Source: Leptospira sp.
Lineage (GTDB): Bacteria > Spirochaetota > Leptospiria > Leptospirales > Leptospiraceae
Reading direction: 5' to 3'
DNA: 64,000 bases
Assembly: GCA_034439575.1 (NCBI GenBank)
Contig: JAWXAQ010000016.1
Location: 96,001-160,000 of the forward strand
A model generated the notes under the pieces. It did no database searches and was not told the origin of the DNA. It worked only from the letters and a program-made list of their open reading frames with translations. Both the position numbers and the translations under genes were made by a program. Within the stretch, counting starts at the first letter, position 1, and each line of letters begins with the position of its first letter. Below, piece by piece: positions 1 through 59,597 of this stretch.

Positions 1-1
1 T

Positions 2-481
2 TCTGGCTCGGTTCCAGTCGGAACATCAATTGAATTCTCAGGTAGTACAATTCCTTCGGGATTTCTTGAAGAGGATGGATCTGCCATTAGCAGAAGTACT
101 TATTCAGATTTGTTTGCTGCTATAGGGACAACTTATGGTGTAGGCGATGGATCCACAACTTTCAATATTCCAGACCATCGTGGAAATTCTTCACGAGGCG
201 TTGGAACAAGCTCAGGCTATGTGCAGAATGTAACAATAACTTTAGGTCAGCGCATTGATGACGCATTGCAAGGTCACTTCCATGCACAAAGATATGCAGG
301 AAGATTTTTCTCTGGTTCGGGGCCATACACAACAGATGATTTCGACACTTCTGCTGGAGGAACACCAGCATTCAATAATAGAATTCGTGAAGAAATAACG
401 AATGGAACTGATGGAACTCCGAGAACTGCCAATGAAACACGAGTTAAAACAATTGGTAAGAAATTTGCTATAAAATATTAG
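2..481 (+). CDS. Phage tail fibre / tail-collar domain protein (5' end outside the window)
   Basis: The frame is open from base 2: SGSVPVGTSIEFSGSTIPSGFLEEDGSAISRSTYSDLFAAIGTTYGVGDGSTTFNIPDHRG, a tail-collar motif; C-terminal PRTANETRVK. Confidence 0.9.
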   Translation, partial: SGSVPVGTSIEFSGSTIPSGFLEEDGSAISRSTYSDLFAAIGTTYGVGDGSTTFNIPDHRGNSSRGVGTSSGYVQNVTITLGQRIDDALQGHFHAQRYAGRFFSGSGPYTTDDFDTSAGGTPAFNNRIREEITNGTDGTPRTANETRVKTIGKKFAIKY

Positions 482-488
482 GAAGAAA

Positions 489-1205
489 ATGAAAGCATAT
501 CAAACAGACAATAACGGATATTATATTGGAGAAGTTGATTGCCAAAAATCTCCATTGGAACCTGGAAAATTTCTAATTCCAAGGGGGGCATTCACAGATG
601 AACCACCAGAATTTGGAGAGAATGAAATTCCTTTCAGAGTTGGAGAAAGTTGGGAAATCCGACCAAACTTTTCAGGAAAGATTTACTTTAACAAGGAAAC
701 AAGAGTTCCTAAAATATTTGAAATCGGTGAACTGTTCGATTCCAATTTTACCGATTCCGTTCCAATTGAAAACGAACCTTACCAAAAACATATAAATGGT
801 GAATGGGTTATTGATGAAGATTTGAAACTGGTTTCCAAAAAAGAAATTTTTCATAATAAATTAAAAACCAAATTTGAACAGCTTACAATGGAATATAGAT
901 CAGTTGTAGAAGTTGAGAATATTGAATGGGATTCAGGACAGAAGTATCTTTCCAATATTGATACTTTGATTTCAGTCTATTCTAAAAATCCAAATCAAAT
1001 CGGGATCCCTTTTTGGAGAGATGCTAATAATGATTTTCAAACAGTAACAATTGAACAGCTAACATCAATTAGAAATGAAATCGAAAAAGATATGTTCCAG
1101 GAAGGAGTGAGACTCTACGAAATCAAATGGATAAAAGAAAATGAAATTCAAAATTTAGAATTAGCAGATTTGGATTCATACGACATTTCGGAAGGTTGGG
1201 ATTAA
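489..1205 (+). CDS. Phage tail fibre assembly protein with a DUF4376-like C-terminus
   Basis: N-terminal YQTDNNGYYIG..SPLEPGKFLIP..FTDEPP (Tfa-like) and C-terminal WDSG..WRDANN; directly follows the tail-collar gene. Confidence 0.8.
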   Translation: MKAYQTDNNGYYIGEVDCQKSPLEPGKFLIPRGAFTDEPPEFGENEIPFRVGESWEIRPNFSGKIYFNKETRVPKIFEIGELFDSNFTDSVPIENEPYQKHINGEWVIDEDLKLVSKKEIFHNKLKTKFEQLTMEYRSVVEVENIEWDSGQKYLSNIDTLISVYSKNPNQIGIPFWRDANNDFQTVTIEQLTSIRNEIEKDMFQEGVRLYEIKWIKENEIQNLELADLDSYDISEGWD

Positions 1206-1206
1206 T

Positions 1207-1902
1207 ATGGAAAATTTAACTTTCTGGTCATTAATTCATAAGCATTGGGAATCAGTGATTTTTATTGTGATTCCTTTATGTTTTATTCTTCTCGGTGTTC
1301 TTCTATCTATTTTGCTTTGGATAATACGTGTTTATCGAATATCTGTAGCACTAAGTGGTTTCAAAATTTCTCCATCCAAACACGATCCTAAATATTTGGT
1401 TCGAATGTCGAAACAAGACCAATTTATTTATTCGACACTTGGAAAATTAAATCAGTTCTATAACGCCAATGTATCCGCAATTTTCCAATTTCACAATGGT
1501 GGAGAATTCAAAAATCAGAACTCGATTCTAAAATGGACACTCACTCATGATAACCCCGAACCAGGAAATGTTAGCTTCCACCTAAAGGAAATTAAATGGA
1601 CGAATGTTCTAGTATCTCAAGCGAATGAATGGATTGGGGTAACGCTGCTTAAGAAACTGTGGTTCTGCGATTTCGATTCACTTCCTGAAAATTCAAATTG
1701 GAGAAGGTATTTCGTGAGTGCTGACTTGCGTTCCGGTCTTTTCTATTTAGTTGAGGGGGAATACGGTCCTGAATTCGTCCTTGCCGTTTTCTGGGATAGT
1801 ATCTCGGACACCGAACACACTATGAATTCAATTAAAGAGTATGGTGATGCCATCGCTTCACTCTTGCGAGACGTTAAATTTCTTACGGAGGAAAACGAAT
1901 AA
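1207..1902 (+). CDS. Putative holin: one N-terminal TM segment plus a GAF-like soluble domain
   Basis: Hydrophobic VIFIVIPLCFILLGVLLSILLWII, then IFQFHNGG..KWTLTHD; first gene after the tail genes. Confidence 0.5.
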   Translation: MENLTFWSLIHKHWESVIFIVIPLCFILLGVLLSILLWIIRVYRISVALSGFKISPSKHDPKYLVRMSKQDQFIYSTLGKLNQFYNANVSAIFQFHNGGEFKNQNSILKWTLTHDNPEPGNVSFHLKEIKWTNVLVSQANEWIGVTLLKKLWFCDFDSLPENSNWRRYFVSADLRSGLFYLVEGEYGPEFVLAVFWDSISDTEHTMNSIKEYGDAIASLLRDVKFLTEENE

Positions 1903-2579
1903 TGTTAATTGGTAAAATTGAAGCTAAAATTATTGCACCAGATAATCCACAGCGAACGGATCAAGCATGGGAATGGGAAGCTATTCCAACACCAGAGCAG
2001 AAAAAAAAGTTAAATGGTGAACCTTTCCTTATTAAGTTAGGACCGAATTCTCAGTGTGTCGGCAATACTCATCAAGACTTGCTCTATGGAGTTGCCAAAG
2101 AGTTCCCAGCAAAGATCGGTCTTTTGGCAACTGAAGATACTTATGAATATTACACTTGGATCAATTCATATCTTTATCATTTAGGTAAGCCGTATGATGC
2201 CAGCCACTTGAAATACTTCCAGGTGCACGTTGATTATTTTAACCATGTTTTTAAAATTCACGGAATCCCTGTTAAAGCTAAAGGTATCGAGATTCCAAAG
2301 AAAGAACAAACTTTGGAAACCGTCAAGTTTTGGATCGAAGAAACAAAACGCCAAGTTGGACTCGGGACTTTTCTAACAGGCTCCGGAGGTCACTGGATGC
2401 GCGGTGACACTATTGAAGTGCATGATGATCACATGGGGCTAGGTGGAAACGACCCATTCGGCACAAGTCCTTATAAATCAAAGACACAGAAAACAAGAGT
2501 TAGAGTAGTTTATAAGGATAAATTCCTAGAATCAAAAACGATTCGAAGAATTACAGTTTTAGAAGATCACAAATGGTAG
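1902..2579 (+). CDS. Papain-fold (C39-like) cysteine peptidase, candidate endolysin
   Basis: Motifs NSQCVG, GGHWM and GNDPFG give a Cys-His-Asp order; 1-bp overlap with the upstream gene. Confidence 0.55.
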   Translation: MLIGKIEAKIIAPDNPQRTDQAWEWEAIPTPEQKKKLNGEPFLIKLGPNSQCVGNTHQDLLYGVAKEFPAKIGLLATEDTYEYYTWINSYLYHLGKPYDASHLKYFQVHVDYFNHVFKIHGIPVKAKGIEIPKKEQTLETVKFWIEETKRQVGLGTFLTGSGGHWMRGDTIEVHDDHMGLGGNDPFGTSPYKSKTQKTRVRVVYKDKFLESKTIRRITVLEDHKW

Positions 2580-2586
2580 GTTAAAT

Positions 2587-3015
2587 ATGGAAGAGATTTT
2601 TATAGAAGTTTTAAGGGGAGTATTCGCATGGGCTGGCGAAACGTTTCGTTCTTACGTTCGGCTCGGTTATATCCTATTTATTTTCGCTGTCTGTATTTAC
2701 AGATTTGAATTCAGTGATTTAAGAGATTTTTACCGAGATAAGGAAAATAAAAAGTATAGCAGAAGCCGCTTTACTCTATTTGTTTCCTTCCTAGCTGGTA
2801 TAATTTTCGTTACGTTAGATTATCTAAATATCCCTGAAGGAATTCACAAAAAGGAAATCATTAAGATTATGATAGTTTCTCATATTGCGCACTTTATTTC
2901 GTTCGTAGTATTGAAATTTTCTTATGATTACCTAATTAAATTTATAATGTCGGGGACATTGTTTAAAATTATTTTCAGGAGGTCATTAGATGAGCCTGTT
3001 GAACCTACTCAATAA
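2587..3015 (+). CDS. Phage multi-pass membrane protein (holin/antiholin candidate)
   Basis: 142 aa with about three hydrophobic segments, inside the lysis-like cluster. Confidence 0.5.
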   Translation: MEEIFIEVLRGVFAWAGETFRSYVRLGYILFIFAVCIYRFEFSDLRDFYRDKENKKYSRSRFTLFVSFLAGIIFVTLDYLNIPEGIHKKEIIKIMIVSHIAHFISFVVLKFSYDYLIKFIMSGTLFKIIFRRSLDEPVEPTQ

Positions 3016-3214
3016 CCTAACAGATTCAGGAAAGAAAGCGTTCTATATTGCGATTTTTATATTAATAATAATCTGCATCCTGTATTTATTTTCGGCAGAA
3101 ATTTCCAAAGGATGGAAGAGGGCATATGATGAATTTAGCAAAACTAATTTTAGTGATGAGTCTGAGTATGATTCAAATTGCGTGCCAGAGCCAGGCGAAC
3201 CTTGCAAGGAATAA
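2990..3214 (+). CDS. Putative inner-membrane spanin (Rz-like)
   Basis: One N-terminal TM (FYIAIFILIIICILYLF) and a C-terminal CVPEPGEPC; overlapped by a lipoprotein gene in another frame. Confidence 0.45.
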   Translation: MSLLNLLNNLTDSGKKAFYIAIFILIIICILYLFSAEISKGWKRAYDEFSKTNFSDESEYDSNCVPEPGEPCKE

Positions 3215-3539
3215 CCTAGCGGTTGTTTGTTCTGGATCATTTGAGTCAACAAACCGCACAATGCAGCTTCCTCCAGAGGCGAAAGTTCTAGAATCGGAAA
3301 GAAAGAAGTTCGGGTCTTCCGTTTTTGTCCCAGCTAGCAGATATAATGCTTTGCTTCGACACGCAAAGGAACTTGCTGAATGTGGGAAGGGTAGTCAGTG
3401 CTTGATTGAACATACCGAATACGAGCGAGATTGTGAAGCCGAATGGGCTGAAAGTCTGGAATCTAGTTTTATTCCAGGGTTTCTTCGCTTTCGTTCTTCA
3501 TGCAAGATACCTAAACCTCAATGCGAAATAGATATCTAA
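3126..3539 (+). CDS. Cys-rich lipoprotein, putative outer-membrane spanin (Rz1-like)
   Basis: Signal peptide and lipobox LILVMSLSMIQIA-C; start lies inside the upstream gene. Confidence 0.5.
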   Translation: MMNLAKLILVMSLSMIQIACQSQANLARNNLAVVCSGSFESTNRTMQLPPEAKVLESERKKFGSSVFVPASRYNALLRHAKELAECGKGSQCLIEHTEYERDCEAEWAESLESSFIPGFLRFRSSCKIPKPQCEIDI

Positions 3540-3543
3540 TTTT

Positions 3544-3786
3544 ATGCTTAAAGAGAGAAAAGTTAGAGCTGTAAATATCGGAAGGGAAGAGGTTTTTTAT
3601 TTCTATTTAGATATGGAAATCCCTTTCCTTGGAAAATTCGAAATTAAACTCAGCAATCCAGACATTAGGCGTTACGCAGTTACCCACCTTGACGAAGACA
3701 AAAGCCTAATCATGCGTTTTAATACATATGAAGAGGCAGAAAATTGGTGTGGTGAGATGGGCTATGAAGTTGACGATAGATGGTGA
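3544..3786 (+). CDS. Hypothetical phage protein
   Basis: 80-aa ORF 4 bp after the previous gene, same strand. Confidence 0.55.
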   Translation: MLKERKVRAVNIGREEVFYFYLDMEIPFLGKFEIKLSNPDIRRYAVTHLDEDKSLIMRFNTYEEAENWCGEMGYEVDDRW

Positions 3787-3792
3787 TTGATT

Positions 3793-5172
3793 TTATTTAA
3801 TTAAATTTGTTGGATCTGTATTTAAAATCCATTCTACAAAATGCCATTTGCCTTTTTTATTGAGTGCTTTCACCTGGACAACAGTCTGATATCGTTTGCG
3901 AATCTCTTCATCTAATTCTTTCGTATGAAGAATGGATATGATTTCGCCTTCAGAAGTACTAATTTTGAATTTATGATCTGGTTTAGTTAACCATCCAGAA
4001 GGTTCACCTAATTCGCCTATGAATACCGCCTCTTTCCCTTCTTCTTCATTATAATTCTCCAAGTATGCTTTAACCATGGACATTTTCCTTCTATCTTCTG
4101 GTTTCAAGGTTATTGAAACACTTGATTTAGGTAATGAAACTGTAATACTTTCTATGCCATCTTCAGGAATAGGGGATAAAGATTGAAGGCTAGCTGCAAT
4201 TTTTGATGCCAAGCTAAAATCAGCTTTAATTGAATCTATAAAATCTCCTGCCTTATCTTTAGCTTCAATTCGTTTTTTTGAATATAAATGTTTAACTGAA
4301 TTTAAACTCGTCTCTAAACGTTCCTCAAATATACTATTATCTTTTTGAGCTTGATTCTCTTCAAAATCAACTAACAAAACAGTGCTACTTGTCCCAACTC
4401 CGATAAGCATAGCCGTTGGTTCAATTGTAGAATCAAGTGAATTCAGCTTGCTCTTAATTATATCTGAAATATTTTGAAATACTCGAGATAATGTTGAAAT
4501 TTTAACTTTGCCTTTGCTAATTCCAACAGTTGGTAATTCTATTGACAGAGAATGCGATTGTTTTTGTTGCTTTGCAAATCCAGATTCTTCATCATATTTT
4601 CTTTGTAATTTTTCTGCCAGACGGACATTTTCTTCCATTTCTCTTTTTCTTAAACTAGGAAATTTAACATATAGGGGTTCCATTCTTGCAAGATGCTCTC
4701 TAATCGCAAATAGAGTCTCAGCAGTCGAAAATTCTTTTCCTAAATCTAAGCTTCCCCAATCTGTCATTTCATTAACCTCTATTGCATCCCCTTCTAGTTC
4801 GAATACTGGCTCGCAAAGAGTGGATTCTTTTGCTTTTCGAAAAGCTAGAATTACAGAATTTCTGTCATTTTCTAATATCAAACTATTCCAGTAAATGCTT
4901 CTCGATTGCTTACCTAAAAATCCTTCTTCATTTTTTTCGAATTCAGTAATATTTTTAAAAACTGGACTAAGATATAAAAATTTAGCCTCATCTCTATTGT
5001 TTCTATACCAGAAAATAAATACTGATATTGCTCCTTTCTTTTTCCATACCTCGAAATGAGCTAAAACTAATCTCTGAAAACTTAACCCAAGCTTAATTTC
5101 ATTGGAATAAACAATAAAGCTCTTTCGATTTAAAGTTTTGACCTCTAAGCCATGGATAAAATTTAGTTGCAT
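3793..5172 (-). CDS. Hypothetical accessory protein (459 aa)
   Basis: Long ORF co-oriented with and 47 bp downstream of the ParB-domain gene; no family recognised. Confidence 0.7.
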   Translation of the reverse strand: MQLNFIHGLEVKTLNRKSFIVYSNEIKLGLSFQRLVLAHFEVWKKKGAISVFIFWYRNNRDEAKFLYLSPVFKNITEFEKNEEGFLGKQSRSIYWNSLILENDRNSVILAFRKAKESTLCEPVFELEGDAIEVNEMTDWGSLDLGKEFSTAETLFAIREHLARMEPLYVKFPSLRKREMEENVRLAEKLQRKYDEESGFAKQQKQSHSLSIELPTVGISKGKVKISTLSRVFQNISDIIKSKLNSLDSTIEPTAMLIGVGTSSTVLLVDFEENQAQKDNSIFEERLETSLNSVKHLYSKKRIEAKDKAGDFIDSIKADFSLASKIAASLQSLSPIPEDGIESITVSLPKSSVSITLKPEDRRKMSMVKAYLENYNEEEGKEAVFIGELGEPSGWLTKPDHKFKISTSEGEIISILHTKELDEEIRKRYQTVVQVKALNKKGKWHFVEWILNTDPTNLIK

Positions 5173-5219
5173 ATGGTAAATAATTTCGACACTTTAACGC
5201 CCATTACTTTAGGAAAATA

Positions 5220-6095
5220 TTAGCTTTCTCCAATATACTCATCCAATCCTTTAATTTTTTTCAATACCTGGAACTCAGATCTTTTAGATTTAAGGGCAAT
5301 TTTTGCGTATAACTCGGGACCACCTTTAGGAAATCCTTTCGCAAAATCAGCTATTTCTTTCTTCGCATTCTCTTCTCGTTTGATGAACTTTTTGAGCTCG
5401 TCCTCTTTTTCCTTTTCGATTTTTCTCAAGATATTCACTCTTTCCCACCAGGAAAGGATTTGCTTGTTATAAGATTGAATTTGATCATCTGTTAGTTCAG
5501 GATATTTCTCGTTCTTATTCGCTTTTTTAATCGCTTCTAGATCACGATCTATTTGATAAAGAGTCCATTGCGGTATTGCCTCATGTATCACGTGTCTGAT
5601 GGCTTTTCGCAAGTTTCGAGGATCCGTTTCAGCTTTACCTGAGGTATAGTCTCCACCTTTGTAGTTTTTGATTAAAGCTGGAATTCCCCATTCCCGAATC
5701 ATTATCTCTTGGCGTTCTTCTGGCCAATAACGTTGATTAGTATCGTTGTCTCCATAGATTGCCTCGCGGTAAGTTGAATCATAATCAGATTCTAAGAAGA
5801 CAACTGGAACCATGAAATTTTTTGGAAGCTTTTTCTTTTTAATCCCTTCGATAACAGCCGTCCATCGACGTCTTCCTCTTAGGATAAGTAGTTTGCCCGA
5901 TTTCTTGTCTTTGTATACTAATAATGGTTTATCGCCCCAGATTCCATTTTTCCAAACTGATTCGCAGAACGACCGCCATTCTTCCTTTTGTTCTGGCGTA
6001 CGAGGGGGGCGAGCTGCATTCTTTGGATCTGGTCTAAGAGATATTGCTTTCTTTTGGGTAACAACGGAGGAAATTTTTAACTTAGAATTACTCAT
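5220..6095 (-). CDS. ParB/Srx N-terminal domain protein
   Basis: LRPDPKNA.R ... SVWKNGI..PLLV ... ILRGRRRWTA (GxRR arginine patch). Confidence 0.75.
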   Translation of the reverse strand: MSNSKLKISSVVTQKKAISLRPDPKNAARPPRTPEQKEEWRSFCESVWKNGIWGDKPLLVYKDKKSGKLLILRGRRRWTAVIEGIKKKKLPKNFMVPVVFLESDYDSTYREAIYGDNDTNQRYWPEERQEIMIREWGIPALIKNYKGGDYTSGKAETDPRNLRKAIRHVIHEAIPQWTLYQIDRDLEAIKKANKNEKYPELTDDQIQSYNKQILSWWERVNILRKIEKEKEDELKKFIKREENAKKEIADFAKGFPKGGPELYAKIALKSKRSEFQVLKKIKGLDEYIGES

Positions 6096-6114
6096 CTTAG
6101 CCTAAATATCGGAA

Positions 6115-6154
6115 TCATCTTCTAAATTCAATACGATTCGAATTCAGAAGATGA
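6115..6154. promoter_or_regulatory. 15-bp inverted repeat upstream of the ParB-domain gene
   Basis: TCATCTTCTAAATTC-N10-GAATTCAGAAGATGA, one mismatch. Confidence 0.5.
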
Positions 6155-6200
6155 GACATAACGATCTGCTAGTCTTCTTTTGATTTGATTCTAACGCGAA

Positions 6201-6443
6201 TTAAGGCATTCCATATTGAACCCATTCTTCCATAGATTGAATCATCACCCTAAGGGAAGCAATGCGGTATTTTATCTTCAAACGAAGATCAGAAAGAACC
6301 AAGGACGGAAACGGCTTGATAATGAACAAACGTCTTTTGCCACTTGGGAAATGCCGAAATCGAAATTCGCTGTTATTGATTTGTATCACCATGAAGGTTT
6401 CACCCTTAATGATGATTAGGTTATTTGTTAGATTCGTATACAT
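6201..6443 (-). CDS. Hypothetical small protein
   Basis: 80-aa ORF with a GGAG-like RBS upstream on the minus strand; start uncertain. Confidence 0.4.
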   Translation of the reverse strand: MYTNLTNNLIIIKGETFMVIQINNSEFRFRHFPSGKRRLFIIKPFPSLVLSDLRLKIKYRIASLRVMIQSMEEWVQYGMP

Positions 6444-6547
6444 AGATTTGTATCTCCTTTACTTAAATTAGTAGGAGGTTTTGAACCTGTTTTCAGGTAA
6501 TTTGAGACAAAATTTCATTTTAAATTGAAATTTCCCGATAAACTAAC

Positions 6548-6823
6548 ATGAATCAAAAAAAATATGCGAACCAAACCGATGAAGACCAATTTGTTCTTAC
6601 AAATGATGCAGAAGAATACATAAAATATCGAGACATCCCTTTGTGCCAGGTATGCAATCGACTAATCTCTGATATTCAAATGTTTCGGGGAACAGGAAAA
6701 CAAGGAATTTGGTTGGATAAGGTATTTTTCCCATTTATAATTTTCGAATTCACTTGTCATGGTTCATCATTAAAATTTAAAACGTTTGGTGGAGACATTG
6801 CCAAGGTGGAAGAATCAATATGA
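6548..6823 (+). CDS. Small putative Zn-binding protein
   Basis: PLCQVCN ... FTCHG; ATGA overlap with the SIR2-like gene. Confidence 0.55.
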   Translation: MNQKKYANQTDEDQFVLTNDAEEYIKYRDIPLCQVCNRLISDIQMFRGTGKQGIWLDKVFFPFIIFEFTCHGSSLKFKTFGGDIAKVEESI

Positions 6824-7833
6824 AAACTCTATACTTGTTTGGTGCAGGTGCTAGTGCAGATGCAGTTCCAGTTGTCGGAGGTATAACTTTTTTCTGGGAT
6901 AAGTATTTCAAAAAGGAAACAGCAAAATTTCATAAAAGCGTGTATAAAAAAATTGATTCGCCTTTATTAGAAGATATAGACAAATTAATTGATGAGACTA
7001 AAGACTTCGGAACTCCAGATGTTTATGCAAAGTCAGTAGCTCTATCAAAAGGAATTTTTTCAAAAGAATATCGAATTGTTAAGACAGCTTTAAATTACTT
7101 TATAATATTATGCTATCTAGTAAATGAAATAGATAAAAGATATTTTTCTTTTTTTTCCGCACTTGTAGATTCAGAAAATAAAAATTCACACATATTGCAT
7201 AAAGATGTATTTATCGCAACTTGGAATTATGACTTTCAAATAACAAAATCCATTTCTATTTTGTTGAACAAAAATTTAACTGATATAAATCATTTGCTAT
7301 ATAATAAGTTATTTAGAATAAATGGTTACGCTGGTTCTTTGAGAGGAACCGTAGATAACAGAGAAAGTTTTCGTCTAACACAACCTGAAAATGAAAACGA
7401 TAATTATATTTTTAGATCAAGTTTTCCAGCAAGCATAGTTAAGGATATTAATGATTCATATGCTCGCATAATGGAAGATAAAAATTTAATATATCACAAC
7501 ATTTCCTTTGCCTGGGAACCACTAAATTTTAATTTAGAGAGACAACAGATTTTTCCTTTTCTAGATCAAATTAAAGTTTTAGTTGTAATAGGTTACTCTT
7601 TCCCAACCTTTAATAGATTTATTGATAAAGAATTAATCTCCAAGATGATAAATCTTGAAAAAATTTACATTCAAGATCCGAGTGATAGTATTGAAAACAG
7701 AATTATTCCATTCCTTGATATAAGAATGCCAGTCTATAAAATATCCAGGGATTCAGAACAGAAAAGTTATTACGATATTGAACATATAAAACACCCTGAC
7801 CAATTCTTTATCCCTCCAGAACTCGACCAGTAG
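6820..7833 (+). CDS. SIR2-like (SIR2_2/AbiH-type) protein, probable anti-phage effector
   Basis: Motifs LFGAGAS, TWNYD and VVIGYSF..D. Confidence 0.8.
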   Translation: MKTLYLFGAGASADAVPVVGGITFFWDKYFKKETAKFHKSVYKKIDSPLLEDIDKLIDETKDFGTPDVYAKSVALSKGIFSKEYRIVKTALNYFIILCYLVNEIDKRYFSFFSALVDSENKNSHILHKDVFIATWNYDFQITKSISILLNKNLTDINHLLYNKLFRINGYAGSLRGTVDNRESFRLTQPENENDNYIFRSSFPASIVKDINDSYARIMEDKNLIYHNISFAWEPLNFNLERQQIFPFLDQIKVLVVIGYSFPTFNRFIDKELISKMINLEKIYIQDPSDSIENRIIPFLDIRMPVYKISRDSEQKSYYDIEHIKHPDQFFIPPELDQ

Positions 7834-7848
7834 AAAATCTTTGCCCTC

Positions 7849-7968
7849 CAATATCTCTAGCTAGAGTGCGACTTTGAGGGCTTCCCAATATCGCGTACAT
7901 GCACGCGACATGCCAGCTCCAATATCGCTAGCTGGAACGCGATTTCAATATCGCTAGTTAGAGTGCGA
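7849..7968. repeat. Array of four 23-bp quasi-palindromic repeats, CAATATCGC-N10-GCGA
   Basis: Copies start at 7849, 7886, 7920 and 7946. Confidence 0.85.
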
Positions 7969-8132
7969 TATTATATAGAAAAGAACAATGAAAGGTACAA
8001 CCTTAGTGAAAAAAGAAGAGAAGATCGCTGAATGCGATAATATAGAATTCTAGTATAAAATTCGAATTAACTAGGAAAATTGAGATTGCCGAATGTATTG
8101 ATTAAGTCGAATAGTATAGAAGAGTTAAAAAT

Positions 8133-8858
8133 ATGACAATTCCAGAAGCAGAAAGGAAATCTAAGTATATTTTAGATAATTATTTATTTTCTATTTTTGC
8201 AAGAAAGGATGATTTTACAATTCATAGCCATAGACGTGAAATGCTAAAAATTGTAAATTCTGGTAAGGCGACTCCTGATGATTGGTATGCCCTTGCTATT
8301 TTAGAATTCAATTTAGGTAACTATTCTGAGTCGATGAAAACCTTGAAAGGTTTATCTACTGTATCACCAGAGTTCCGAAATATCTATGCTTATGCTCAAC
8401 TAACGCTTGTTCAAAATTCAATTTCTATTTCCAAAAGTGAATCTGCAATTTTGAATGAATTCTTTACAGGGACAAATTTAATTAAGCCAGATAAATTACT
8501 TTATCAAATGATAAAGAATTCTATTCAATCTAACAATTCTCGGTTTGGTTTGAAAAAAGATATTATTATCAAAGTTGAATATTTCAATCCTAAGAATTTT
8601 AAATTAACGTCTGGTCCATTTGAATTTTCTGAAAATATCGAACCGTCAAATGAATTGGATCATGGATCAAACATTGGAAGTGTATTTGATTTGAATCTTC
8701 AAATCTATATACTAAACAATGGATTAGAAGAAAAACATAGAAAGTTTTTAATTGATTATTTGGACGAAAATGAAATTGATCAACTAATTACCGAAAATAC
8801 AGCAGAAGATTTAAAAACAGAACGTGACTATTCTGAATATACTCTATTGAATATTTGA
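8133..8858 (+). CDS. TPR-like repeat hypothetical protein
   Basis: PDDWYALAILEFNLGNYSESMKTLK..SPE fits a TPR helix-pair consensus. Confidence 0.55.
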   Translation: MTIPEAERKSKYILDNYLFSIFARKDDFTIHSHRREMLKIVNSGKATPDDWYALAILEFNLGNYSESMKTLKGLSTVSPEFRNIYAYAQLTLVQNSISISKSESAILNEFFTGTNLIKPDKLLYQMIKNSIQSNNSRFGLKKDIIIKVEYFNPKNFKLTSGPFEFSENIEPSNELDHGSNIGSVFDLNLQIYILNNGLEEKHRKFLIDYLDENEIDQLITENTAEDLKTERDYSEYTLLNI

Positions 8859-8871
8859 TAAGTATTTTTCG

Positions 8872-9105
8872 ATGATAGTCCGGATCAGCCCTCATATACG
8901 TGAACTATTCGATAAACTCAAAAATGAAGATAGAAATTTCAGATTTAATCAGCAGAAAATATTGGATAAAGTAATATTTGATAGGTTCTTAAATAAGAAA
9001 TTCAATTTTAGGTTTGATACAACAGAACATGGACCTTTTAAAATTTTTTTAGAAGTGACACGAGACGGAATTTTCATTTCTGATTTGCGACAAGATATTC
9101 CTTAA
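8872..9105 (+). CDS. Small protein with a weak RelE/ParE-like pattern
   Basis: MIVRISPHIRELFDKL ... GPFKIFLEVTRDGIFISD; 13 bp after the TPR gene. Confidence 0.4.
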   Translation: MIVRISPHIRELFDKLKNEDRNFRFNQQKILDKVIFDRFLNKKFNFRFDTTEHGPFKIFLEVTRDGIFISDLRQDIP

Positions 9106-9177
9106 ACACCGTTTGGGAATCTCATAAATGGTAAAATTTGCACTTGTACTTTTTTCTTTATTCTGAAAAGTAGGTTA

Positions 9178-9209
9178 ATAAAAAACGAGCGGCTCTTACG
9201 AACCGCCCG
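9178..9209 (-). terminator. Rho-independent terminator for the small basic protein gene
   Basis: Minus strand CGGGCGGTTC-GTAA-GAGCCGCTCG followed by a T-run. Confidence 0.75.
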
Positions 9210-9250
9210 ATTTTAGTTTTCGCATATTTAGAAGGGGTCTAACTGTCAGG

Positions 9251-9379
9251 CTATTTCCCTTTCTTCTCTTTCTGAGTTAACGCAGAAGCCGCCACGGACT
9301 TTTGCGCTTGAGTGCTTTTCGGGTTGCTAAGAATCTTGGCAGCCTGAGAAGCAACTTTCTTTGAAGTTTCTTTACTCAT
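9251..9379 (-). CDS. 42-aa basic protein (MSKETSKKVASQAAKILSNPKSTQAQKSVAASALTQKEKKGK)
   Basis: Strong RBS AAGGAGGTGA before the ATG at 9379 and its own terminator; resembles a small mobile-element protein family from memory. Confidence 0.75.
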   Translation of the reverse strand: MSKETSKKVASQAAKILSNPKSTQAQKSVAASALTQKEKKGK

Positions 9380-9587
9380 AATATTCACCTCCTTGATCAT
9401 ATAAATGAATCCAAATAAGCCAACTGATCCAGTCGGTGAATTATGTCGTATTATGCTAGAATTCAAAAATGAGAAAATCGGTCTAGTCGATTCGGATAAT
9501 TATGAATATAATGTAATCGGAAGAAATGGACAAATTAAACTAACTTGTGATTATGTGAGTAAAGACTAACAGGTTTAGGTTCCAAAT

Positions 9588-10514
9588 ATGAAATTAATTC
9601 AGTTTTTCACTTCTCTTTTGCTTTTGTTATTTTTGGGCTGTTACACTGTTAAAGAATCTAAAAGAGAGCCTATACCTTTACCTGAAGCTGAAAAAGTTCT
9701 TTTATCAACTAATGAAAATTTGATTAAAGAAGAAGAAAAGAAAATCAAAGTGTATAGATCCGGTGATAATATAGTTTTTGAAATTGTAATCGAAGAAGTT
9801 TCGAAGAAGATGATTTCGAAAAAATATTTCGGCAAAGAGAAAGTTGAATACGAGACAGAGAGTACTTGGTCTAGAGTAATGGATGAACCTCCAAGAGCTA
9901 ACGGATGGGAAAGGCTTTTTGTTTATACTGGACTCGCAACATGGGGAGCAACTGCCATCCCAGTTTGGCTTTTAGAACTTCCGACACTGCCTTTTCGATT
10001 AACTCCAGATATTATTGAAAAACCAATAGAGCAAATAGAAACAAAAGAAATATCTCGAGTTAAATTGAAAGTAAAGGATCCTTATATAATTAATACTAGG
10101 TGCTTTGCTCTTATCACTCACCTTGGGAAAACTACAATCCCAGCAAGTGGCTTCGTAAATTCTTTGGGAATTAAAACAACTCAAAGAGTTGCTTTTGTTG
10201 AAGGAGAAAACGGCGAAGCTTTATCTGAAGAAGAGGAAATTGATTTTAGCTCAATTCTCACAAAGAAAGAAAAAGATATCATATCCGAACGTCAAAATAA
10301 TCCAGAGATTCCAAGATTGGTTTATGATTCACTCAGTTCAGGAGATGATATGGATACTATCATTTCATGGTTAGGTGAAGGAGAATCCATTCTCGAAAAC
10401 ATAGGATCAGGATTTGATATCATTTCTTACAGATATCGAAATCGGGACAAGTCAACAGTTCAGCTAATATTTATGAATGGCGAACTCAAAACCAAGCAAT
10501 GGTTTTCAAATTAA
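9588..10514 (+). CDS. Lipoprotein (prophage cargo)
   Basis: Lipobox LLLFLG-C, an internal hydrophobic stretch, and a BamE/BLIP-like C-terminal pattern. Confidence 0.7.
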   Translation: MKLIQFFTSLLLLLFLGCYTVKESKREPIPLPEAEKVLLSTNENLIKEEEKKIKVYRSGDNIVFEIVIEEVSKKMISKKYFGKEKVEYETESTWSRVMDEPPRANGWERLFVYTGLATWGATAIPVWLLELPTLPFRLTPDIIEKPIEQIETKEISRVKLKVKDPYIINTRCFALITHLGKTTIPASGFVNSLGIKTTQRVAFVEGENGEALSEEEEIDFSSILTKKEKDIISERQNNPEIPRLVYDSLSSGDDMDTIISWLGEGESILENIGSGFDIISYRYRNRDKSTVQLIFMNGELKTKQWFSN

Positions 10515-10545
10515 GAAATTTAAAAAATTAAAAGGAACTCACAAC

Positions 10546-11238
10546 ATGAAAAAACTTATCTTTATACTCGTAACGTTTTCTATTATTCTAAACTGCGCAT
10601 CTTCCAACAACGGCGAAAAGAAAGCGGACACCGAAAATGAGACTAAGATCCGTAACACGGAAGTATGGGCGGATTTGAAAGATCTAAATACTGAAAAAAA
10701 ATATACTACAAGTGGATATTCTATAAATCGAAAATCTAAGATTCAAAATTTCTTATTAATGTCTAATTTGAATATTAATTTGGAACAGGTCGAAATTACG
10801 TTCCTTGAAACTAATTCTTTTTATACTGTGCCAGTTGCGGCCTTCAGCATAAACAATAAATCACGTTACGAATTAATTAACTGCTTAGGAAAATTTATCG
10901 AATGGGACAAAATCGCTATTCTAAATAATGATAAAGTAGAAAAGGAAATTTGCTCAATAGATTACAGTAGTGATCCAGAAAGATCACCTTTACTTCAGGT
11001 GAATGGTAAGTTTAAAATAACCTTATTTACAGATTCCCCTAAAAAAAACGCAGCTAGATTTGATTTTGGAGAAATCCGTGATCCAAACGATGATTCTAAA
11101 TTAAGAAGATTTGATTTTCATTATTTAAATAAAAATGAAATCATAGGATTAATGAATTCCCTTACAGATAAAGAAATATCCAAGCAAGTGTTCGCTTACA
11201 TTAAAAAAGAACGAGCTACCCAAAGGAGATACAAATAG
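10546..11238 (+). CDS. Lipoprotein (prophage cargo)
   Basis: MKKLIFILVTFSIILN-C lipobox; AAGGA RBS upstream of 10546. Confidence 0.7.
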   Translation: MKKLIFILVTFSIILNCASSNNGEKKADTENETKIRNTEVWADLKDLNTEKKYTTSGYSINRKSKIQNFLLMSNLNINLEQVEITFLETNSFYTVPVAAFSINNKSRYELINCLGKFIEWDKIAILNNDKVEKEICSIDYSSDPERSPLLQVNGKFKITLFTDSPKKNAARFDFGEIRDPNDDSKLRRFDFHYLNKNEIIGLMNSLTDKEISKQVFAYIKKERATQRRYK

Positions 11239-11275
11239 AAAATATTCACTTTTTCTCCTTTTCCTCTTTTTTCTC

Positions 11276-11303
11276 TTGACACAAATTAAGCTCTCGCTAG
11301 AAT
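11276..11303 (+). promoter_or_regulatory. Sigma70-type promoter
   Basis: TTGACA-N16-TAGAAT upstream of an AAGGAGGTGA RBS. Confidence 0.55.
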
Positions 11304-11329
11304 AATGTCATCCTAAAAGGAGGTGAACG

Positions 11330-11518
11330 ATGGCGACTAAAGATTTAGCTTATATGAAAATCAGCAAAGATCTAGTTAAACAGGCAAATGTTTCCTATGC
11401 GAAAGTTAAAAATGATATTTTAACTCAAGAAGGAATTGTTACCGAAGCATTAGAATTCTTTGTAGAAAATTTTCCGAAAGTCGCCGAGAGCCAAATTAAA
11501 AGAAAACAATCGGCTTGA
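11330..11518 (+). CDS. Small ribbon-helix-helix-like DNA-binding protein
   Basis: LAYMKISKDLVKQA ... TQEGIVTEALEFFV pattern, strong RBS and promoter. Confidence 0.55.
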   Translation: MATKDLAYMKISKDLVKQANVSYAKVKNDILTQEGIVTEALEFFVENFPKVAESQIKRKQSA

Positions 11519-11527
11519 GGCGTTAAG

Positions 11528-11557
11528 CCTTCCCATAGTTGAATTGTTATGTCTGAT
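11528..11557 (+). other. Degenerate dif-like site with an 8-bp centre (inner att half)
   Basis: CCTTCCCATAG-TTGAATTG-TTATGTCTGAT. Confidence 0.55.
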
Positions 11558-11628
11558 TAGAAGTATCAAAGAAACCTTTCCCTGAGCCTTGTAAAGGGCT
11601 ACGAGACAGAATTTCGGGAATAACCTCT

Positions 11629-11656
11629 ATGCGACATAAGATTGATTATGGGAAGT
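11629..11656 (-). other. dif-like XerC/XerD site (28 bp)
   Basis: Minus strand ACTTCCCATAA-TCAATC-TTATGTCGCAT has the 11-6-11 layout with CATAA-N6-TTATG. Confidence 0.75.
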
Positions 11657-11676
11657 GCCATATTGCGTCACGTAAT

Positions 11677-11730
11677 AATCTACTCCAAATGCTAGTCGTT
11701 GCATCATCTAAGAATCTACTCCAAATGCTA
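11677..11730. repeat. 18-bp perfect direct repeat, two copies
   Basis: AATCTACTCCAAATGCTA at 11677 and 11713. Confidence 0.8.
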
Positions 11731-11817
11731 ACCTGAGACGACTAGACTTTCCCATGGTCTTTCACATAACAGTATGATAACCTAAGTATTTTTAGATGCC
11801 TTTTGGAGAAAAGTAAC

Positions 11818-12615
11818 ATGAAAAAAATATCAAACAATACGAAATGGAAAATTAGTCTCTTTCTGCTTTCTAGCTTATTGAATTGTAATCCCGATTCCGG
11901 CAAAAAAGAAAACGAAGATCTAACGAACCTTTTATTATTAAACCAACTCACTTCTGCAACAGTAGCATCAACTTTTTCATGTACTTTGCCAGACACAGCG
12001 ACTGGCGGACCCCGCTGTTTTGATTATGGTACATCGACATCATCCAGCAGTGCGAGATCCCATTGTTCTACAAATTCAGGCACATTTTCAGCAACTTCAG
12101 CTTGTTCAACGACTAGAAATTCCGTAGGAACTTGTTCTGGGACAATTACTTCTTCAGGAATTTCCGTAAAGATTAATTATTTTGACTACTATAAAAGTTT
12201 TTCCAATTTTGCATCTAGTATTACTGTCGTTATTAATGCATTAGGATCTAACTCTACAGTATATGGAGTTGCAGACCGCTGTAGTATAAATGATGGAATC
12301 ACTAGTGGCGCAACAACTGTGCTTTCGACCAAATCTCCTCGAATTCGATTCGTTAATAACAGCGGGATTTCAGAAACGCATACATTTCATACTTCAACTG
12401 CTTGTGGCGCTGGAACAAAATATGCTACTTATGGAACAATTGCTAATGGAATTACAGGATCCTATATGACACTCACTGAAAGGACTTTACCTAGCTCTAT
12501 TAGCAGTAGTGATGGAGCCAATTGCTCTACTCTATCATATTTTTTCTCAAACGGAAATGTTTGGACATCAACTTCTACCCCAACAAATTCTTCAGTAGCG
12601 GCTACTATAGAATAA
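11818..12615 (+). CDS. Ser/Thr/Cys-rich lipoprotein
   Basis: Lipobox SSLLN-C followed by a LLLLNQL tether typical of leptospiral lipoproteins. Confidence 0.75.
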   Translation: MKKISNNTKWKISLFLLSSLLNCNPDSGKKENEDLTNLLLLNQLTSATVASTFSCTLPDTATGGPRCFDYGTSTSSSSARSHCSTNSGTFSATSACSTTRNSVGTCSGTITSSGISVKINYFDYYKSFSNFASSITVVINALGSNSTVYGVADRCSINDGITSGATTVLSTKSPRIRFVNNSGISETHTFHTSTACGAGTKYATYGTIANGITGSYMTLTERTLPSSISSSDGANCSTLSYFFSNGNVWTSTSTPTNSSVAATIE

Positions 12616-58051: not shown

Positions 58052-59597
58052 TTTTTTTCTCCGAAATTAATCTTAAAATTTCTTTTTCCAATAGGGAATT
58101 AAAAAGCAGAGCGCCATCATAAGTCAAATGATGTGGATCAAAAAACATTTGTTTTGTTGAAATTGAATTTGTATGATCAACTAACATTTGTCCGTTTTTT
58201 GTAAGATTCTCGGATAAATATTTGCGCAAATCTTCAAACCATCTTCCATCAACATACGTTTTAGATTCTATGGGATTTTCTGGCGATAACACGACTATAA
58301 ATGGAATATTTTTTTCTTTAAAGTATTCACTTAAACTATTGATTCTGTTAAATTCAAACCATGGTTCAAAAACCAAGTCTTTGACTTCACGCTTTTTGAT
58401 ATGCAAAGTATTTAATCTTCGAAGTTCAGGCCTTTTGTCGGCATCATCAAGTATTCGCTGTTTATAATCTTCATCATAAACTGAATCGCTCATTTCAGAA
58501 AATCTTTTTTCATCATAAAAAGATTCCCGAACATATGAAACATCATTAAAATCTGGAGTCTTACAGAAATAATGCGATAGACGGACACCAACGGGAAAAT
58601 CAAAACCCTTATGATATATGTTAGCTTCCTTAGCTGTGCCCATGCCCTGTTTTATTTTCAATTTGATCATCATATTTTTTGATGAATAATTTTCGAATTT
58701 TTCCCAAGGGAATCTGATCCAGCCAGTTTTATCAAAATTGAGATTTACACTTGCTAATGGGACAGAGCCTTGTTTATTTAATAATTCACTATTTTCTTTA
58801 AAAATGGAAACATCGATGATGGTATTTTTTTTCAAAATGAAAATGGAGTCTTCAGAACCGCTGTTCATTTCGCAATGCAAAGTAGCTTCCGATTTTGTCC
58901 AACCCTTTGACCAGATCCCCTCAATAGGCATACTTCCCGCATAACGTTGGAAGCTGCGACCACTGCGGAAATGATTTTCAAACCAAGTTTCGATAGGGTC
59001 AAAAAAGAATGATCTATATCGATTCACATAGAGAAGATATTTTGAAATCAGTCGAACTGATTGTTTTTTATCTAAACTACTTGAAAAATCATCATAAAAT
59101 TCTTTCGGATAAAAAGTTTTGGCTGGATAACGATCGGAAAATTCATCGATCCATTTTCTATCATTGAATATTAATTTCCCATCTTTCTCATCCAAATATT
59201 CCCATTGCAAGTCGGCAAAGTTTAACAAATATACGACGAGAGATGGATTTGATTTTTGTATATCTGATTTATAATAATAAAAATCAGAGGGAGCCATGGC
59301 TACATGAGAATAAAAGTGCCCTTTTATGTTTGTATCTGCAAACATTTTGTGAGGCAACACCGAATATAGAGCTACCGAACTTCCAACAAACAATACTTTT
59401 TTAGAATTTGATTCTTCTTTTAACGTACGGCGAAGGCTCGCAAAATTATACCAAGGCGAAGAATCCCATTCCATTTCATTTGGAAAATAAAAATAAAATT
59501 TTTCAAAAATTAAATAATCTAAACCAAGGGTGGAACAAAACAGGATGATAAATAAATAAACGACCTTCGCTTTTAAAGATAAAAAGAAAGTTCTCAC
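58035..59597 (-). CDS. SGNH/DltD-like periplasmic protein
   Basis: N-terminal TM, VGSS, and FFDPHHLT (DxxH). Confidence 0.6.
   Translation of the reverse strand: MRTFFLSLKAKVVYLFIILFCSTLGLDYLIFEKFYFYFPNEMEWDSSPWYNFASLRRTLKEESNSKKVLFVGSSVALYSVLPHKMFADTNIKGHFYSHVAMAPSDFYYYKSDIQKSNPSLVVYLLNFADLQWEYLDEKDGKLIFNDRKWIDEFSDRYPAKTFYPKEFYDDFSSSLDKKQSVRLISKYLLYVNRYRSFFFDPIETWFENHFRSGRSFQRYAGSMPIEGIWSKGWTKSEATLHCEMNSGSEDSIFILKKNTIIDVSIFKENSELLNKQGSVPLASVNLNFDKTGWIRFPWEKFENYSSKNMMIKLKIKQGMGTAKEANIYHKGFDFPVGVRLSHYFCKTPDFNDVSYVRESFYDEKRFSEMSDSVYDEDYKQRILDDADKRPELRRLNTLHIKKREVKDLVFEPWFEFNRINSLSEYFKEKNIPFIVVLSPENPIESKTYVDGRWFEDLRKYLSENLTKNGQMLVDHTNSISTKQMFFDPHHLTYDGALLFNSLLEKEILRLISEKKNEKDK

Follow-up and report, generated by a model that had tools for sequence, protein, structure and literature searches.

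Several kinds of elements that integrate at dif have been described, and the closest to the locus reported here is TLCphi. In its attP the XerC-binding arm and the central region are near-identical to dif and the XerD arm is degenerate, and its integration leaves a good dif on one side (PMC4246890, PMC5357621). The gonococcal island (GGI), of 57 kb, also lies at dif, between one wild-type and one modified flanking dif, the modified one stabilising integration (PMC5357621), and the same combination of wild-type and modified dif flanks, again with a stabilising modified site, is given for the Legionella element LME-1 (PMC9765430). CTXphi possesses two inverted sites with both arms each, 90 bp apart, one with a long centre and the other with a centre of 5-7 bp, and both are kept at one prophage end (PMC4246890). 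In Vibrio, inoviruses and double jelly-roll prophages found at dif are integrase-less, and their lysogeny module is exchanged horizontally (PMC12715192). These descriptions, and the comparisons based on them, refer to the accessible parts of the cited articles. In the literature outside subscription journals and supplements, the integrative elements of this type (IMEX) that we found were filamentous, tailless, microvirus, satellite, island or 'phage-like'; no tailed dif-integrated IMEX was found there, and none in Leptospira.

We analysed a stretch of 64,000 nucleotides (the window), corresponding to positions 96001-160000 of contig C16 in a Leptospira-like genome of 4.1 Mb and 37 contigs, coded G000, which is a metagenome-assembled genome originating from microbial-mat runs. 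In the reading that we consider probable, a tailed phage of 49 kb without a known integrase occupies the host dif, having borrowed the XerC and XerD of the host, and its attP is part of a double-stranded cassette. The layout is, by analogy, that of TLCphi and of the gonococcal island, carried by a tailed dsDNA phage. Like TLCphi, the G000 phage and a second phage, found in a member of another genus (G061), combine a dif-like XerC arm and centre with a degenerate XerD arm. Unlike TLCphi, which the accessible text presents as a small satellite mobilised as a filamentous element, the G000 element is a 49-kb tailed dsDNA phage; no homologue of XafT (DUF3653) accompanies it, an extra inverted dif-like site and a small gene are present, and the host is a spirochaete.

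GGI and LME-1 resemble the locus in that a large element sits at dif with one intact and one altered flanking site. However, GGI has a type IV secretion system and no virion, LME-1, which is described as 'phage-like', uses the single recombinase XerL, and in the accessible text neither of them is described with an inverted second site. With CTXphi the locus shares two inverted dif-like sites tens of bp apart (71 here versus 90 bp) and a non-canonical centre, which here is confined to site A. CTXphi is a filamentous ssDNA phage whose substrate is the folded attP(+), whereas here the phage is dsDNA and the 6-bp spacer of attP is identical to that of the target dif. The CTX-type trait that neither double-stranded site is usable alone is not seen, the centre of attP being the same as in dif and the odd spacers occurring in site A only. 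As for the Vibrio lysogeny modules, a dif prophage is integrase-less and its att module is shared by unrelated carriers; unlike those carriers, which are non-tailed and below ~16 kb in the accessible text, the carriers seen here in Leptospiraceae are a tailed phage and at least one non-phage island.

The prophage and the host dif

The features of the prophage and of its right-hand junction are listed here; coordinates without a contig name are those of the window.

C16:58365-107645: prophage as a whole, 49.3 kb, the left 37.6 kb lying before the window
C16:58348-58375: attL, in direct orientation to site B and 49,281 bp upstream of it, ATGCGACATAA-GATTGA-AAAAGGGAAGC
1..11645, plus strand: right-hand 11.6 kb of the prophage, with tail fibre, tail-fibre assembly and lysis genes (PHROG matches), then low-GC cargo
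3793..5172, minus strand: gene of a 459-aa protein, phrog_28569 (E 4e-49), beside a ParB-like gene; a homologue lies beside the G061 att cassette
11629..11656, plus strand: site B, attR and working dif (arms and core identity, flank split)
11629-11639 and 11640-11645: XerC-type arm and spacer of site B, both identical to attL
11646-11656: XerD-type arm of site B, running on into host sequence
11657..11730, plus strand: host right-hand flank of the dif module, found beside dif on all replicons of the genus
11663-11694 and 11699-11730: two 32-nt direct repeats in the right flank

Site B is a genuine dif. A scan of the 4.1-Mb genome allowing spacers of 5-9 nt returned three sites with 22/22 matches, which are the true difs, none with 19-21 and nine with 18/22. 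In a fuzzy search of the genome the arms of site B recur unchanged, with different spacers, at C13:6735 and C22:106491, and synteny with the chromosome-I terminus of relatives extends to both sides of the C22 dif. The pattern ATGCGACATAA-N6-TTATGGGAAGT is exact in most of 20 dif loci from 11 genomes of the same genus, and the rest differ by one to three letters. In complete genomes dif is found mid-replicon on all three replicons, for example in G005 at 1.764 of 3.60 Mb, 134.7 of 277.7 kb and 35.5 of 74.1 kb, and the spacer GATTGA is also used at the dif of three replicons of relatives (G023:C2, G010:C2 and G005:C1). The dif module of the genus includes a motif containing GTTACCGATGTGCC 25-45 bp to the left of the site and, to the right, a flank of ~70 bp with two direct repeats.

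The dif-like copy in direct orientation that the original prediction expected at the other prophage end was indeed present: the fuzzy arm search gave a fourth site, C16:58348-58375. It shares with site B an identical core of 18 bp, made of one T, the XerC-type arm and the spacer, after which attL continues with AAAAGGGAAGC; XerC-type arm and spacer are thus 17/17 identical to dif, and the XerD-type arm is degenerate. A 17-mer of the left flank precedes attL and is also found at the difs of C13 and C22 (otherwise the genome search gave one match with 2 mismatches, on C35), and a 14-mer of the right flank follows site B and is present at these two difs as well. Since each flank is found three times for three dif modules, the prophage has split one dif module, and the two sites do lie at the phage/host boundary as first proposed. 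The cumulative GC skew of C16, computed with the prophage deleted, peaks locally in the 2-kb bin that ends at 58 kb and has its minimum at 226 kb; the junction is at 58,364, and the skew, a check that the original prediction had proposed, switches there. A palindromic dif-like 28-mer (18/22) was also noted at C16:273284-273311, near the skew minimum, which is the presumed origin region of this contig.

Both junctions recur in other assemblies, all of which may stem from one sample series: the attL junction is present at 100% identity in two IMG/VR contigs, and the attR junction is bridged by Logan contigs of runs X1, X6 and X8. Contigs of runs X1, X6, X8 and X9 (depth 3-9) show the integrated attR junction alone, with 0 loose ends at dif, and in the contigs of these four runs, at this depth, the circular attP junction and an empty dif are absent, an absence that weighs neither way. 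A search of IMG/VR with TerL gave two 100% matches, which are the same provirus with the same host flank and not a free phage genome.

The sequences around the prophage belong to different replicons in relatives. The left flank matches their chromosome I, ~200 kb from dif, the right flank matches their small replicon of 66-75 kb, and for this reason an orthologous empty site could not be shown. C16 looks like a mosaic secondary replicon of ~314 kb with skew extremes roughly opposite, and the mapping of its flanks leaves some room for a cointegrate, or for a path switch inside a repeated prophage. One could go farther and suppose that the whole arrangement is an assembly artefact, a collapsed or misjoined prophage having linked the left flank of one replicon with the right flank of a different one, as the divergent flanks and the metagenomic origin of the genome might suggest. 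However, besides the recurrence of both junctions, exactly one orphan left flank and one orphan right flank exist with none to spare, the host-only skew peaks at the junction and has a balanced opposite minimum, and, even if the flanks were mis-paired, each junction shows a phage in a dif. We consider such an artefact extremely improbable.

Comparison of dif modules (window 11657-11730, loci L006-L025, and C13:6660-6830 and C22:106380-106570 of G000) gave some further observations on the host. A conserved module of ~170 bp, composed of the left motif, dif and the right flank with its two direct repeats, is present on all three replicons, and within a genome its flanks resemble one another more closely (in G016, for example, on all three replicons) than they do between species, which suggests that replicons are homogenised or that the flanks have an accessory function specific to the host. 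At ~1.6 kb from the dif of C13 (C13:6735-8400, L004) another XerD-type arm is found, accompanied by a right-flank copy, the XerC-type arm being degenerate there, and this arm and the dif bracket one lipoprotein-like gene. In relatives, parts of the dif module are separated by gaps of 1.4-1.5 kb (G015:C1, G014:C3, G005:C2 and C3, G019:C19). The arrangement on C13 and these gaps, 1.4-1.6 kb in size, may represent small dif-bounded gene modules. On chromosome II of G005 (G005:C2, L007, ~134.7 kb) an extra XerC-type arm stands in tandem before the dif (ATGAGACATAA, 5 nt, dif arm), and this may be the scar of an earlier Xer event.

Recombinases and a second phage at dif

A full tailed gene set lies between attL and site B, in agreement with the proposal of a tailed dsDNA phage at dif. 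It includes KilA-N/ANT, an SbcCD-like pair, a DnaD/HTH_36 protein, DUF5131 and a Dam-like methylase, then small and large terminase (TerS, TerL), portal, P22-type coat, minor capsid and tape measure proteins, and finally the proteins for the tail fibre, for its assembly and for lysis. With these genes the element represents a complete tailed dsDNA phage. Between the phage core and the att cassette, at 6500-11240, a block of low GC (0.30-0.33) holds family-less genes, two lipoprotein-like ORFs among them, a typical cargo beside an attachment site.

Relatives of this phage are distant. At the DNA level its right end has one weak short match in 40 other genomes of the genus and none in INPHARED or PLSDB; the coat and 459-aa proteins, searched against 114 genomes of the family, gave matches of 27-29% identity only; and tblastn with the 459-aa protein and one G061 protein against phage records gave no match, though PHROG profiles match both.

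Known recombinase families were searched for in six frames. The genome has five matches to PF00589, none of them on C16, none to PF00239 (resolvase), none to PF07508 (the large serine recombinase domain) and one to PF00665 (rve), which is on C34 and not on C16. The lack of an integrase that had been foreseen is thus borne out for known families, about half of the phage ORFs being family-less. The host, as also foreseen, has its own Xer: the XerD model scores 370.9 bits at C33:258473, above the curated cut-off of 329.6, and a second Xer-like paralogue at C33:94852 reaches 280 bits with the same model. No homologue of the TLCphi activator XafT (DUF3653, PF12375) is found in the G000 genome. A phage that sits exactly inside dif and is without an integrase of its own most likely uses the XerC and XerD of its host.

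A second case was found in G061, on two contigs. The attL on C30 reads AAGCGACATAA-TATCTA-TATAAGGAAGT, with a host-type dif flank on its left, and the attR on C52 reads AAGCGACATAA-TATCTA-TTATGGGAAGC, with the same cassette before it; XerC-type arm and spacer are 17/17 identical and are followed in attL by the degenerate TATAAGGAAGT. Right of attL, C30 carries genes 36% identical to the first two genes of the G000 phage, and on C52 attR is preceded by two small genes in tandem and by a homologue, of 449 aa, of the 459-aa protein. In both phages the XerD-type arm keeps the outer GGAAG and the inner TTATG is destroyed. There is no tyrosine recombinase on C30 or C52, but the phage is split over contigs and one such gene lies at the end of C28, so that an integrase of its own is possible for this phage. 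G061 provides a second case of a phage in dif, and this phage is distantly related to the first.

Many integrases target conserved host sites, and the genes for integrase and excisionase are usually found beside attP. It is conceivable that the phage encodes an unrecognised recombinase aimed at the left half of dif, with Xer uninvolved; the many family-less ORFs would give room for it, and in G061 the 449-aa homologue and the two small genes lie directly beside attP. The main candidate was the 459-aa protein, which has no Pfam or NCBIfam family and belongs to a protein family of 22 representatives. Its AlphaFold model (pLDDT 80.4) has 0 matches in the PDB at E<=0.001, where weak OB-fold-like local matches concern the C-terminal part only, and its best viral matches in BFVD are an uncharacterised protein of Leptospira phage LE1 and a DUF6575 protein. 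With no recombinase fold matched in the PDB or BFVD, the model speaks against this protein as a hidden recombinase. Against an unrecognised enzyme there are also the 0 matches of the four families on C16 and the extent of the identity, which covers exactly the XerC-type arm and the spacer and, together with the outer GGAAG kept in both phages, fits a Xer substrate. In our opinion this explanation is very unlikely.

The att cassette and its inverted site

Left of site B the following features were recognised.

11276..11303, plus strand: promoter-like site TTGACA-16-TAGAAT (11/12) before the small gene, a consensus match alone
11330..11518, plus strand: small gene, 62 aa, with homologues in G062, G060 and G061, each immediately before an inverted dif-like site
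11528..11557, minus strand: site A, inverted dif-like, reading ATCAGACATAA-CAATTCAA-CTATGGGAAGG on the minus strand
11601..11628, plus strand: 3' part of the stretch of 68-71 nt, ACGAGACAGAATTTCGGGAATAACCTCT, conserved in a four-way alignment and adjoining the XerC-type arm on its left

The positions first given for sites A and B, 71 nt apart, were exact. Each arm of site A matches at 9/11 positions and its spacer is of 8 nt. The inverted pairing that had been read by eye also came out of a repeat finder, as a 9-nt pair, CTTCCCATA/TATGGGAAG, and the 7-nt pair TTATGTC/GACATAA. The naming of the arms had to be turned round. The conserved right-hand arm of E. coli dif is, as is well established, the XerD arm. 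In the accessible part of PMC2731167 that arm is matched by TTATGGGAAGT at 8/11 positions, a resemblance which places the XerD-like arms outside and makes the XerC-like arms face the 71 nt, whereas the original prediction had XerC outside and XerD towards the loop.

Site A is not due to chance. Site A and attL are two of the nine 18/22 sites of the genome; with a background of ~7 such sites in 4.1 Mb, the probability of finding one within 150 bp of a given site is ~5e-4 (calculated post hoc). Among 20 element-free dif loci of relatives, none has the TTATGTC half-site within 160 nt and one has an inverted match of even 15/22.

The same arrangement was looked for elsewhere, by a pattern scan of one genome per species and by protein searches that took as query the 62-aa ORF or an alignment of its homologues. 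The pattern scan gave four matches, of which three belong to Leptospirales. Two matches, L072 and L074, represent real cassettes, L073 was rejected as a host dif with a chance 7-mer and no small-gene homologue, and L071 belongs to an Oscillospiraceae MAG. Weak matches of the small protein in G024 and G128 were dropped, no dif-like site being nearby. Scans with the small-protein alignment returned the source contig only from metagenomes and nothing from viral data, and Rfam found nothing meaningful in 10500-12500.

In four genomes (G000, G062, G060 and G061) the order is the same: the small gene, an inverted dif-like site right after its stop, 68-71 nt (71 in one genome, 68 in another and 70 in two), and a forward site composed of XerC-type arm, spacer and XerD-type arm. 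The spacer of the forward site is of 6 nt in 4/4 genomes, while the spacer of site A is of 8 nt in G000 and of 5, 5 and 9 nt in the other three. The encoded small proteins are 31-70% identical to that of G000, G060 being at 31%. In G061, part of the ACGAGACAGAATTTCGGGAATAACCTCT motif is found on the host side of attL too. Outside the cassette, neither the G062 contig nor the neighbourhood in G060 shows homology to the G000 phage, and a cassette common to otherwise unrelated elements is portable. The initial suggestion of a terminal cargo element was half right in this sense: the small gene, site A and attP are a shared cassette.

In G060 (G060:C8:48000-61900, L082 and L083) the att cassette closes an island of ~12 kb containing a type IIG restriction-modification gene, an FRG-domain protein, TetR, a glyoxalase and DUF7689, and no phage genes. 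No attL was found there within 61 kb of the cassette, and the island may be a decayed or a non-phage carrier.

The 62-aa protein has no Pfam or NCBIfam family and its model is poor (pLDDT 55.7). From its sequence pattern, and from the Atlas feature clusters nearest to it, one of which is named CopG/Arc/MetJ (0.92, a lead), it is possibly a DNA-binding protein of the ribbon-helix-helix type. By its position, the small gene is a candidate analogue of XafT.

Whether site A has any function at all can be questioned. It could be a non-functional relic, such as a decayed dif copy acquired by an ancestor, which travels with the small gene while attP alone matters. No mechanism demands site A, the length of its spacer varies (8, 5, 5 and 9 nt), its XerC-type arm is imperfect, and the four cassettes share descent, so that conservation could partly reflect ancestry. 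However, both arms of site A can still be recognised where the protein (31% identity between G000 and G060) and the 5' part of the stretch have diverged, the gap is held at 68-71 nt, and the changes in the outer arm in G060 are transitions which preserve G-T pairing and the purine/pyrimidine pattern. We regard a relic as unlikely.

The original prediction saw in sites A and B a CTXphi-style hairpin. In the CTXphi way, the phage strand would fold site A on attP, XerC would swap one strand pair with dif, and replication would resolve the product, irreversibly; this would leave site A, 71 nt and dif at the right end, which is the product observed. The layout is similar to the two inverted CTXphi sites (accessible text of PMC4246890), the spacers of site A (8, 5, 5 and 9 nt) differ from the 6 nt of attP, site A holds a good XerD-type arm and attP a perfect XerC-type arm, the cassette is kept in four genomes, and the weak OB-fold-like local matches of the neighbouring 459-aa protein are a lead in the same direction.

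When the fold itself was evaluated, the strand of the prophage junction folded site A on site B at -14.5 kcal/mol, with z of -1.76 and -1.97 and 11 and 8 of 200 shuffles as good, which is modestly better than shuffles; the perfect outer stem of this fold relies on the host-derived XerD arm. The inferred phage-form attP, which takes its arm from attL, folds at -11.2 kcal/mol with z of -0.43, and 64/200 shuffles are as good, so that the hairpin was not upheld as the substrate. The phage XerD-like arm complements site A at 7/11 positions in G000 and 5/11 in G061, and in every cassette the XerC-arm stem is mismatched at its four outer positions. Compensatory changes are seen in 0/16 stem pairs, of which 13 are invariant, so that covariation is silent either way. 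Moreover, the phage, with its terminase and portal genes, is of the tailed dsDNA kind, its attP, unlike that of CTXphi, has a canonical spacer shared with the host, and a loop does not need a conserved spacing of 68-71 nt. Transient folding of replicating dsDNA is possible, but since a double-stranded attP of the TLC/GGI type accounts for both ends the hairpin is not needed, and we hold the CTXphi-type pathway to be decidedly unlikely.

In site A the XerD-type arm is good, the XerC-type arm is weaker and the spacer is non-canonical, and it can be asked whether the two sites of the cassette work together. The cassette might be a Xer-hijacking device of two half-competent sites, site A giving its XerD-type arm and attP contributing the crossover region along with the XerC-type arm, joined either by a folded strand exposed during replication of the dsDNA phage, as in CTXphi and integron attC, or by a double-stranded complex bent by the small protein. 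The conserved inverted site with its odd spacers and the complementary quality of the two sites are in line with such a composite substrate, which we nevertheless think unlikely. If true, it would mean that CTX-like single-strand recombination, or a new synapse architecture, exists in tailed phages and spirochaetes.

Integration and its implications

The reading that we prefer remains a double-stranded attP recombined by the Xer proteins of the host; from the anatomy of both ends we infer Xer catalysis and the following order of events. The circular phage would carry the attP ATGCGACATAA-GATTGA-AAAAGGGAAGC, in which the XerC-type arm is a perfect copy of the host arm, the 6-bp spacer is also that of the host and the XerD-type arm is degenerate, and this attP would be part of a cassette formed by a separately promoted small gene, site A, 68-71 nt and attP. 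Host XerC and XerD would recombine it, as double-stranded DNA, with the dif of the secondary replicon of ~314 kb, the products being a crippled hybrid site on the left (attL) and a perfect dif on the right (site B). The latter would go on resolving replicon dimers, and the crippled attL probably guards the prophage against FtsK-driven excision, as described for the gonococcal island and LME-1. If XerD acted first, FtsK or some other activator would be required. Site A would serve as an accessory Xer-binding site of the double-stranded attP region, where it would recruit, orient or regulate Xer.

A by-product of this analysis is the definition of dif, with its conserved flanks, on each of the three replicons of saprophytic Leptospira-like genomes. 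For the Xer field, the att region is a small transferable cassette with an extra inverted site and a small gene, and it offers a compact test construct for a non-pathogenic laboratory Leptospira. Prophage finders that rely on an integrase would misplace or miss phages of this kind. Xer-hijackers have been described for filamentous, tailless and satellite phages, genomic islands and plasmids, while tailed phages are, to our knowledge, assumed to bring their own integrase. With its clean anatomy and two independent cases, each with both att sites, the locus described here challenges that assumption.
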